From the NCBI GenBank assembly GCA_964530955.1, contig CAZHCL010000017.1:1-12915 (forward strand): DNA of 12,915 bases, given 5' to 3'. The stretch comes from Candidatus Woesearchaeota archaeon. GTDB taxonomy: Archaea; Nanobdellota; Nanobdellia; Pacearchaeales; GW2011-AR1. Position 1 is the stretch's first letter. The number at the start of each line of letters is the position of its first letter. The notes under the pieces were generated by a model. That model had not been told where the DNA came from. It made no database searches and saw nothing but the letters and a program-made list of their open reading frames with translations. Position numbers and translations under genes: made by a program. Below, in pieces: positions 3,763 to 9,775 of this stretch.

Positions 3763-3771
3763 TCGCTGGAT
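3763..3771 (+). repeat. left target-site duplication TCGCTGGAT
   Basis: Exact 9-bp direct copy at 9767-9775; both copies directly abut the inverted ends. Confidence 0.9.
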
Positions 3772-3796
3772 GGGAGTGTCTAACTTGCGTGGCTTT
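3772..3796 (+). repeat. left terminal inverted repeat GGGAGTGTC-TAACTTG-CGTGGCTTT
   Basis: Matches the reverse complement of 9742-9766 in two blocks. The outer block resembles IS6-family termini (IS26 begins GGCACTGTT). Confidence 0.88.
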
Positions 3797-5039
3797 CTAT
3801 CATTTTCTCCTCACGTGTCAAGTTCGTGGCTTTTTCTTGTTTAATTGATTGTAATAACATAGCATTCCATCTGTTTCCATTAACGCCAATTCCACATTTA
3901 TCCGCAGGGGTTAGCTTTTGTCTTGCAGATTTTCTTATAAAATTATGAAAAACTTTAAAGCCATCTTGATAGGTTTGAGTTTCTGTTACTCCTCTTCTAA
4001 TCTTATGAAATTCTTTCTGATGGGAATGATGAGATTCTATTGCATTGTTATTGACTATTTTTCTTTTACCCATTATTGTGGTAAATTTAACTTTCCGTTC
4101 ATTACCCCAATTTCTAAAAGTCTTTCTACATCCATCTTGATAACAAGGGTTACCATCAACTATAATTTGATATGGTATTTTTCCGTTCTGTTTTAATGCC
4201 TCTGTGAAAACCTTTTGTGCGTCTTTGCTATTTCTACTTCTGCCTGAATTGATAGAAGCAAGTAAGAATTTAGTTTTATTATCCATTACATTCCAGACAT
4301 AATCATATTCCTTATTTTGATTGTTCTTATTTTTCCTATCTATTCCTCTCTTGCTTAAAACAAGTGTTTCATCTGCATTCCATACATTACTTTGAGTTTG
4401 TGGTTTGATTGTTTCGCTATATTTTTCCATAGTTTGTGAAAATCTTAAAACCCAACTTCTTATAGTTTCGTGAGAAAGTTTTAATCCATAAAATTGTTGA
4501 AATTGGTCGCTTATGTCTCTATAACTTAATCCCTTATAGTAGCAGTCCATAGCAAGGCAAACAAGTTTAGTGTTTCCTTTAATCTGTTTGATTGGCTCTA
4601 AAATAAATCTTCTTTTACAATCCTTACAACAGAATAATTGTTTAAATCCGAGTTTAGTCTTACGTGTGCCTCTCTTAAACAGCTGTTCAGAGGCACAGTA
4701 AGGACAATTATCTCTTTTTTGTCCCTCAATTATTAACTCTACTTCTTTCTCTACTTGTGGCTCTACTTCATATTTTGCCTTAACCTTTTTAAATAATAAA
4801 ATAGCCTTAATGTGTTTGCAATAGAGATTTTTACCCAGACATCTTCTCTTAAAGTCTTCACACTCACAAGCATAACTATCTAAGTGTGTTACTCTATACT
4901 TTTTATGACTATCAAATTGAGATGGAACTAAATAAGTAAACTCATCTAATATTTGAGGGTTGCCTTTCTCTAAGATAATCTCTGCTCGTTTATTTCTCCA
5001 TTCAGAGAAGTTTTTAAGATATTGTGCTGTGTTTTCCAT
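3780..5039 (-). CDS. IS6/IS240-like DDE transposase with N-terminal SWIM zinc finger, C4 zinc ribbon and HTH
   Basis: SWIM C58-x-C60...C74-x-H76. Ribbon C112xxC115...C138xxC141. HTH GLSYRDIS...SHETIRSWV. Catalytic WNAD223E, IIVD295G and NNNAIE335S, plus YVWNVMD. The stop codon lies inside the left inverted repeat. Confidence 0.9.
   Translation of the reverse strand: MENTAQYLKNFSEWRNKRAEIILEKGNPQILDEFTYLVPSQFDSHKKYRVTHLDSYACECEDFKRRCLGKNLYCKHIKAILLFKKVKAKYEVEPQVEKEVELIIEGQKRDNCPYCASEQLFKRGTRKTKLGFKQLFCCKDCKRRFILEPIKQIKGNTKLVCLAMDCYYKGLSYRDISDQFQQFYGLKLSHETIRSWVLRFSQTMEKYSETIKPQTQSNVWNADETLVLSKRGIDRKNKNNQNKEYDYVWNVMDNKTKFLLASINSGRSRNSKDAQKVFTEALKQNGKIPYQIIVDGNPCYQDGCRKTFRNWGNERKVKFTTIMGKRKIVNNNAIESHHSHQKEFHKIRRGVTETQTYQDGFKVFHNFIRKSARQKLTPADKCGIGVNGNRWNAMLLQSIKQEKATNLTREEKMIESHAS
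3815..3833 (+). repeat. internal copy of the end motif (GTGTC-AAGTT-CGTGGCTTT) inside the transposase 3' coding region
   Basis: Same two conserved blocks as the terminal repeat, with a 5-nt spacer. Confidence 0.8.
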
Positions 5040-5046
5040 AATATAC

Positions 5047-5084
5047 TTAGGTGCCCGAAGTATATAAACATTTCGGTGCCCTAA
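5047..5084 (-). promoter_or_regulatory. transposase promoter: TATA (5061-5068) flanked by two 13-bp palindromic operators (5047-5059, 5072-5084)
   Basis: TTAGG-TGC-CCGAA and TTCGG-TGC-CCTAA, 25 bp apart, around TTTATATA (minus strand). Confidence 0.8.
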
Positions 5085-5108
5085 ATATATAATGCAGAAA
5101 TGTTTATA

Positions 5109-9670: not shown

Positions 9671-9714
9671 AACAAATTCTATAAGACATTATATAAAAAC
9701 TTACCTAAACCTCA

Positions 9715-9734
9715 AAAGCCACGCCATTTGACAG
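9715..9734 (-). repeat. internal copy of the end motif at the right end (CTGTC-AAATGG-CGTGGCTTT)
   Basis: Same two blocks as the terminal repeat, 6-nt spacer, inverted relative to the left copies. Confidence 0.78.
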
Positions 9735-9741
9735 CCCTATT

Positions 9742-9766
9742 CAAGCCACGAATCCTTGACACTCTC
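9742..9766 (-). repeat. right terminal inverted repeat GAGAGTGTC-AAGGATT-CGTGGCTTG
   Basis: 18/25 identical to the left end, with the same 7-nt spacer. Confidence 0.88.
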
Positions 9767-9775
9767 TCGCTGGAT
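9767..9775 (+). repeat. right target-site duplication TCGCTGGAT
   Basis: Exact direct copy of 3763-3771. Confidence 0.9.

Follow-up and report, generated by a model that had tools for sequence, protein, structure and literature searches.

A recently inserted, apparently IS6-related unit transposon and its family in DPANN archaea

The element, its ends and the empty allele

The 12.9-kb window analyzed here is the whole of contig CAZHCL010000017.1, which belongs to a 0.76-Mb, 83%-complete archaeal genome, and the region between its host genes lsm and rps8e is occupied by a 5,995-bp element (positions 3772-9766) that encompasses one transposase gene and five passenger open reading frames (ORFs; Table 1). 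The element is directly flanked by two exact copies of a 9-bp sequence, inside which the left end reads GGGAGTGTC from position 3772 and the right end, ending at 9766, reads GAGAGTGTC as the reverse complement of positions 9758-9766; compared with each other, the two ends are identical at 18 of 24 positions. The GC content of the element (26-31%) is lower than that of the flanks (34-36%). A sequence-only reading of the window had described this arrangement as a recently inserted unit transposon with a single, IS6-related DDE transposase and five passenger genes, enclosed by inverted ends and an exact 9-bp target-site duplication, and had proposed a search for the empty site joining lsm and rps8e and for transposase homologs with the same ends, 9-bp duplications and variable cargo. 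Every part of this that could be tested was borne out by the comparisons reported below.

In AT-rich DNA of this kind, a 9-mer direct repeat combined with a loose (9/12) inverted repeat proves nothing by itself, such a combination being present in 147 of 200 Markov-random windows. Because this loose test is uninformative, we used a stricter one, a 9-mer repeat combined with an inverted repeat matching at 18 of 24 positions; the window contains one such combination, and only 3 of 500 random windows contain any.

The decisive support for the boundaries is comparative. The exact 29-mer TTTAAATGTA-TCGCTGGAT-TAATTGCTAC, which is the predicted empty junction between lsm and rps8e, is present in the JGI metagenome contig L085 (Ga0265319_1016308). 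This contig is 100% identical to window positions 9767-11817 over 2,051 nt and 99.75% identical to positions 2963-3771 over 809 nt; exactly 9 nt are common to the two matches, and TCGCTGGAT occurs once in the contig, which therefore lacks exactly positions 3772-9775, that is, the 5,995 bp of the element plus one copy of the duplication. L085 represents the allele before insertion, from a strain identical or nearly identical to that of the window, and because this exact empty allele with a single TCGCTGGAT exists, the insertion is real, precise and recent. The occupied allele is carried by an ENA contig of 22 kb. Among the relatives, lsm and rps8e lie within a few hundred bases of each other in 13 of the 14 loci fetched, and in the closest relative genome (G007) they are adjacent and the alignment runs across the junction without a gap. 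A congeneric locus (L025; G016:C21, ~1810-2246) has about 400 bp of additional DNA in the lsm-rps8e spacer, which is GC-richer, apparently coding and dissimilar to the transposon.

Taking all the evidence together, we consider it highly probable that positions 3772-9766 represent an intact, recently inserted unit transposon of a large DPANN (Pacearchaeota/Nanoarchaeota-type) family: one pair of ends encloses the transposase and the passengers, there is a single duplication, and the same layout recurs in 18 relatives at unrelated sites. No second transposase or insertion sequence (IS) copy was found in the element by inspection of the ORF list or in the genome by a protein search, which returned one transposase copy. 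A search of the genome for further copies of the ends gave only chance-level pattern matches (3, compared with 6 in the control); the pattern, having a fixed N6 spacer, would overlook some genuine sites, so that this result supports a single copy only weakly. Two other classes of mobile DNA were considered and rejected, namely a tyrosine- or serine-recombinase island, no such gene being present, and a composite transposon, in view of the missing second IS copy.

Table 1. Features of the transposon and of its insertion site in the window
Feature	Positions	Strand	Remarks
TATA box of the host lsm promoter, TTTAAATA	3751-3758	-	outside the element, beginning 14 nt from its end; ~22 nt ahead of the lsm ATG
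Left copy of the 9-bp target-site duplication, TCGCTGGAT	3763-3771		single-copy in the empty-site contig L085
Transposase-proximal end	3772-3832	+	terminal GGGAGTGTC and two repeats TGTC(T)AA-N4-6-CGTGGCTT at 3777-3795 and 3816-3832
Transposase, 419 aa	3780-5039	-	SWIM-like CxC..CxH module (~residues 1-108), Zn ribbon (112-141), helix-turn-helix, IS6-type DDE core (D223, D295, E335)
Transposase promoter	5040-5081	-	TATA box at 5061-5068 between two GGTGCCC motifs (5050, 5075), putative operators
Passenger ORF, 48 aa	5160-5306	+	divergent from the transposase; weak ribbon-helix-helix (RHH)/NikA-like match (PF21983, E 8.7e-5, below cut-off); also in the gene calls; putative regulator
Passenger protein, 215 aa	5299-5946	+	no family match
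Passenger protein, 255 aa	5943-6710	-	similar only to protein clusters without a name; same strand as the AbrB-like gene, which it follows
AbrB/MazE-like passenger, 56 aa	6741-6911	-	PF04014, E 0.0035, below cut-off; putative repressor or antitoxin
Second operator-promoter copy	6912-6953	-	GGTGCCC at 6922 and 6947; precedes the AbrB-like gene
Predicted type IIG restriction-modification enzyme, 903 aa	6959-9670	-	nuclease N-terminus, N6_Mtase/Eco57I, TaqI_C specificity domain
Distal end	9716-9766	-	terminal GAGAGTGTC (read inwards) and two TGTCAA-N-CGTGGCTT repeats, inverted, at 9743-9761 and 9716-9733
Right copy of the 9-bp target-site duplication, TCGCTGGAT	9767-9775		exact match to the left copy

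The transposase, its family and the exchange of cargo

The best family model for the transposase is NCBIfam transpos_IS6 (NF033587), with 96.8 bits over positions 7-201 of 202 and a cut-off of 125 bits, followed by IS66 (36.8 bits) and IS256 (29.7 bits), and the Pfam domain DDE_Tnp_IS240 (PF13610) is matched with 37.2 bits, above its 27-bit cut-off. A tblastn search of 72,556 plasmids matched 230 records; all the matches listed are annotated as IS6 family transposases or are unannotated, with 21-29% identity over residues ~150-390, and the best of them (27-28% identity) fall in the ISCpe7 group of Clostridium, which corresponds to clade h of Varani et al. 2021 (PMC7986276) and clade VII/VIII of Harmer and Hall 2019 (PMC6807381). 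An hhalign comparison of a 41-member family profile with the ISCpe7 transposase aligned the region from the Zn ribbon (residue 110) to residue 388 (probability 99.1%, E 1e-18), and the three catalytic residues are invariant across the family, ISCpe7 and a Mesorhizobium IS6 transposase. The first ~108 residues, with their invariant, SWIM-like CxC...CxH pattern, have no counterpart in ISCpe7, and a sequence search of the PDB with the transposase produced no meaningful match. By these comparisons, the enzyme is homologous to IS6-type transposases but lies outside the curated NCBIfam equivalog boundary. A second group of IS6-like transposases (loci L007-L020; ~290-340 aa, 24-32% identical), without the first ~100 residues, is present in relatives of the genome that contains the window.

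At E<=1e-10, the transposase has 390 related proteins, of which over 120 are 66-80% identical to it and ~410 aa long; at E<=1e-30, there are 105 clusters of the 50%-identity level, many of them full-length with 30-43% identity. The sources name these proteins only as "DDE-type integrase/transposase/recombinase", and the relatives with organism names come from metagenome-assembled genomes of Pacearchaeota, Nanoarchaeota or Woesearchaeota. We examined 35 loci from species-representative genomes, together with copies in the window's own genus, by a brute-force search for a 9-mer repeat (at most one mismatch) adjoining an inverted repeat with at least 10 matches in 14 positions. The search yielded 17 complete elements, all with perfect 9-bp duplications and G(A/G)GAGTGT(T/C)A-type ends; nearly all the spurious matches had a mismatch and AT-rich pseudo-ends. 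With the element of the window and that of G036 (duplication ATTTCCAAT, split over two contigs), this amounts to 19 complete elements from Pacearchaeota/Nanoarchaeota-type genomes, 2,348-7,084 bp in length, of which all 19 have a perfect 9-bp duplication and every one carries cargo; the element of G001 (duplication TCTAATTCC) and that of locus L055 are one and the same copy. Outside this set stands the element of G013, in which the duplication matches at 8 of 9 positions (CCTCGCAG[A/G]). It makes up almost exactly its whole contig (L040; G013:C88, 3,858 bp, with a 3.7-kb element), carries a predicted S-adenosylmethionine-dependent methyltransferase, a DUF488 protein and cargo of unknown function, and has an in-frame TGA in its transposase gene; it is probably a decaying copy. 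In 9 of the 35 related loci (L056, L058, L060, L061, L063, L065, L067, L069 and L076), the transposase gene is cut short at about residue 400 and the proximal end is missing, with an end-like GRGAGTGT motif kept upstream in several of them; from their sequences, these look like one-ended, immobilised copies.

The ends of the elements have a characteristic structure. The two-site architecture seen in the window is kept at both ends across the family, and the half-sites covary at all four sites of an element, being CGTGGCTT, CGGGAGTT/AT, CGGGACTT or TGTCGCA...CGGTTG, a pattern that would be expected of cognate transposase-binding sites. At the proximal end of the element in the window, the stop codon of the transposase gene (3780-3782) lies inside the terminal repeat. 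The consensus of the ends is G(G/A)GAGTGT(T/C)A in 16 of 18 elements (GGGAGTG at the proximal and GAGAGTG at the distal end in the window), the remaining two having GGGATTGTCGCA or GATGTTGTCGCA, and position 2 is an A in about half of the ends. The TGT(T/C) at positions 6-9 is shared with the IS26 end, GGCACTGTTGCAAA.

The transposase is the sole gene common to all 18 elements compared, and the remaining gene content, 2-6 passenger genes per element, is variable and is predicted to consist mostly of restriction-modification (RM) systems. The cargo types include an EcoRI-type methylase with a GmrSD_N/HNH nuclease, a D12 methylase with an AlwI-type, or HNH plus EVE, partner, type I-like methylase-specificity fusions, type III Res plus Mod, type IIG enzymes and type II RM, along with Fic, RelA/SpoT-like and ParE-like proteins and small zinc-ribbon, RHH, AbrB or winged-helix proteins. 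Two comparisons illustrate that transposase and cargo modules recombine. The transposases of L044 and L048 are 96% identical and their cargo is unrelated. Conversely, L047 (4222-8117) and L073 (5266-9158) share a type III RM cassette with 89% nucleotide identity over 3.9 kb, although their transposases are only 69% identical and their end types differ, which is direct evidence that lineages of these elements have exchanged cargo. A small ORF (45-113 aa) is located directly upstream of the transposase gene in 15 of 18 elements, and the sequences that flank the TATA box of the transposase are element-specific palindromes or repeats; this combination suggests element-encoded repressors.

In the window, the largest passenger is predicted to be a type IIG enzyme, combining in one polypeptide a nuclease at the N-terminus, a gamma-class N6-adenine methyltransferase and a specificity domain at the C-terminus; the PADLOC model REase_MTase_IIG is matched with 276.8 bits over residues 6-643, and the Pfam domains are HSDR_N_2 (weak), N6_Mtase, Eco57I and TaqI_C. 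The coding strand of this gene, which has 26-29% GC, contains a G9 tract (8209-8217; AGT GGG GGG GGG ACT), a candidate slippage (phase-variation) tract with the frame now open. The sequence-only reading had called the cargo defensive and regulatory. The defence part holds for the type IIG gene only; the other four passengers are two small, putatively DNA-binding proteins and two proteins of unknown function (215 and 255 aa), for which the PADLOC, Pfam, NCBIfam and Atlas searches returned no named family. The GGTGCCC motif occurs five times in the window, always within the element (0.2 expected); the pair around the TATA box of the transposase is spaced by 25 bp, and the promoter of the AbrB-like gene is 80% identical to that of the transposase over 49 nt. 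The G001 element has a similar, 53-aa gene upstream of its transposase gene and in the same orientation. The stretch at positions 5109-5160 of the window separates the transposase promoter from the RHH-like ORF. Outside the element, precomputed Pfam matches mark two host genes as unusual for an archaeon: one (209-2035) encodes a protein of 608 aa in which the dCTP-deaminase domain is duplicated, the other (12061-12723) a protein of 220 aa that weakly matches Sigma70_r4_2.

Route of transposition and choice of target

Transposase multimers would bind the four end sites and synapse the ends, and the 3'-OH ends would be joined to phosphates of the target that are separated by 9 bp, immediately upstream of a promoter consisting of a B recognition element (BRE) and a TATA box. 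A replicative cointegrate would form from an incoming replicon, and host homologous recombination between the two long copies of the element would reduce it to a simple insertion. Transcription of the transposase gene is probably repressed by the small DNA-binding proteins encoded in the element, acting on the GGTGCCC pair that brackets the TATA box. The cointegrate route appears to be the most likely pathway because the core of the transposase is of the IS6 type, the IS6 members studied so far form cointegrates only, which are resolved by host recombination (PMC7986276, PMC6807381), and, by homology with IS6/IS26, no second-strand cleavage function, second nuclease or resolvase is evident.

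The same element might instead be mobilized by non-replicative cut-and-paste or by a copy-out/paste-in pathway, a possibility that deserves serious attention even though we find it distinctly the less probable. The elements are simple insertions, usually one per genome, each with its own perfect duplication and with differing cargo, and the 9-bp stagger and the divergence from IS26 would fit such a pathway. Duplications of 9 bp are typical of the cut-and-paste elements of the IS4/Tn5/Tn10 and IS256/Mutator types, weak secondary matches to IS256/Mutator models were obtained, and the enzyme carries a SWIM-like finger, as do the transposases of Mutator-like elements. However, resolved cointegrates also give simple insertions with duplications, the profile comparison and the scores (96.8 bits for IS6 and 29.7 for IS256) place the core with IS6 and its cointegrate-forming members, and neither a second nuclease nor a hairpin-type signature was identified.

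Several observations weigh against an IS6-related, cointegrate-forming transposon regulated by its own repressors. The transposase scores below the NCBIfam IS6 cut-off (96.8 vs 125 bits), and the 9-bp stagger contrasts with the 8 bp of IS6, so that the mechanistic details of IS26 may not transfer. No cointegrate, circle or three-copy structure was seen among the assembled sequences of the 35 loci, and the footprint-free empty allele fits either pathway. The AlphaFold2 model of the transposase, built from a 41-sequence alignment, has a predicted local distance difference test score of 51 and a predicted template modelling score of 0.33, which is too poor to support domain inferences; only the order of the secondary structure was noted (a beta-rich N-terminal module, the Zn ribbon, helices and an RNase-H-like beta/alpha region). 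Finally, the Pfam matches behind the repressor assignments fall below the threshold (E 1e-4 to 4e-3).

The position of the elements relative to promoters follows a simple rule. Outward from the element end come the 9-bp duplication, 4-5 nt of A-rich sequence and a TATA-like 8-mer (TTTWWAWW). In 11 of 18 transposase-proximal and 5 of 18 distal flanks, such an 8-mer begins at offset 13 or 14; 14 of the 18 elements have one on at least one side, whereas the background is 0.4% per four-offset window (binomial 4e-22). A T occupies the first position of the TATA box in 17 of the 18 proximal flanks. The proximal ends on the truncated contigs L051, L070, L075 and L077 and the distal flank of the G036 element also fit the rule. 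In the window, the TATA box of lsm is likely to be the target determinant; the lsm promoter is intact after the insertion, and the conserved CGATA(C) upstream of its TATA box has been retained because it lies partly within the duplication. A tentative explanation, which we would not put higher than a fair conjecture, is that the transposase reads the archaeal promoter, either as DNA bound by the TATA-binding protein and transcription factor B or through the shape of the BRE/TATA DNA, perhaps with the help of the SWIM-like module at its N-terminus, and inserts the element at a distance of precisely 4-5 bp on the upstream side of the TATA box. If so, this would be a DNA transposon tethered to promoters, an archaeal equivalent of Ty3-type targeting, which would explain how defence cassettes of 2-7 kb spread through gene-dense DPANN genomes without damage.

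The retrotransposons Ty3 and Ty1 are tethered to RNA polymerase III initiation factors, and Tn7-like and Tn3 family elements are known as defence-carrying unit transposons. Both likenesses are functional analogies, the former in the insertion site, a short and constant distance ahead of the region where transcription starts, which spares host genes, and the latter in the defence cargo inside a single-transposase element; the enzymes and the chemistry are unrelated, and the family of the window lacks accessory genes of the TnsABC or resolvase type.

The constant distance from the TATA box might alternatively reflect selection and not targeting, only those insertions surviving in compact genomes that spare genes and promoters. 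The host genomes are small and densely packed with genes, insertions between genes and just outside promoters would do the least harm, and the duplication restores the BRE-proximal bases. Nevertheless, we regard this explanation as improbable: avoidance of damage would allow a range of intergenic positions, whereas all 12 TATA-like 8-mers found within 15 nt of proximal ends, and all 6 on the distal side, are located at offset 13 or 14, and a base-specific profile extends through the target site. Selection alone would probably not produce the single-offset peak. The still more radical proposal that the locus is not one unit, being a solo IS6-like IS beside a separate islet or a pseudo-compound transposon minus one IS, with a coincidental 9-bp repeat, appeals to the frequency of chance 9-mers with loose inverted repeats in AT-rich DNA and to the movement of classical IS6 cargo as two-copy pseudo-compound transposons (PMC7986276), but it is already contradicted, and can hardly be maintained, given an empty allele without exactly positions 3772-9775, a distal end with the same two-site architecture and no transposase remnant, 18 further elements with the same layout and perfect 9-bp duplications, and a single transposase copy in the element and in the genome.

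Relation to IS6 elements and biological implications

The relation of this unit transposon and its family to IS6 can be specified. The similarities include the homologous Zn ribbon, helix-turn-helix and DDE core shared with the ISCpe7 group (residues 110-388), the lack of a resolvase, and ends that start with G(G/A) and have a G at position 7, in accord with the IS6 rule of a GG start and a G at position 7 (PMC6807381) except that position 2 is often an A. Members of the IS6 family have 8-bp repeats and a length of 0.7-0.89 kb, a few members with zinc-finger extensions reaching 1.2-1.8 kb (PMC7986276), and encode one gene between single short inverted repeats, whereas the elements described here have 9-bp duplications, a length of 2.3-7.1 kb, 2-6 passengers, two putative transposase-binding repeats per end and insertion sites at a fixed offset from TATA boxes; unlike the ISCpe7 group, they also have the additional SWIM-like module of ~108 aa at the N-terminus of the transposase. 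Because the IS6 expectations of 8-bp duplications, small size and a single gene fail, we would describe the elements as an IS6-related family of unit transposons and not as canonical IS6.

The closest parallels come from two directions. The only transporter IS listed for the IS6 family, ISDsp3 of Dehalococcoides, also combines an IS6-type transposase with passenger DNA within a single pair of ends (PMC7986276), but, by its description, it is a single-copy oddity with one hypothetical passenger gene, in contrast to the modular, RM-dominated cargo always present here. The archaeal "IS6" clades (ISH14/ISH15, ISC735/774 and ISPfu1-type) share with the new family the archaeal hosts, the IS6-like DDE core and inverted repeats longer than the bacterial ones and are set apart, again by description, as single-gene ISs of 0.7-0.75 kb (PMC6807381). 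The signature that follows the catalytic glutamate is E--F---K-R in these archaeal clades (PMC6807381) and E-S-H-H-x-H-Q-K (E-xHH---K) in the family of the window, which is closer to the bacterial E-DH---K. Harmer and Hall question the IS6 membership of the long clostridial and the archaeal groups (PMC6807381). We found no description of the present family in a literature search that did not include subscription journals, ISfinder and TnCentral.

The hosts of these elements are uncultured DPANN archaea with genomes under 1 Mb, which have been reported to be poor in RM systems (PMC12988326); defence genes appear to move among these organisms as interchangeable cassettes aboard a vehicle of their own. 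In textbooks, IS6/IS26 elements are the minimal type of IS, and yet an IS6-related transposase apparently drives here a whole family of true unit transposons, with a precise rule for a harmless landing site beside promoters. The natural pair of occupied and empty alleles shows current activity, and the exact empty allele of the window is joined by independent support for the 9-bp rule, the exchange of cargo and the TATA offset. The family would offer a tractable system for the study of target-site selection by DDE transposases at archaeal promoters and would allow one to test whether the cointegrate mechanism of IS6 also works for elements as long as 7 kb, and it may possibly provide a tool for site-directed integration in archaea.

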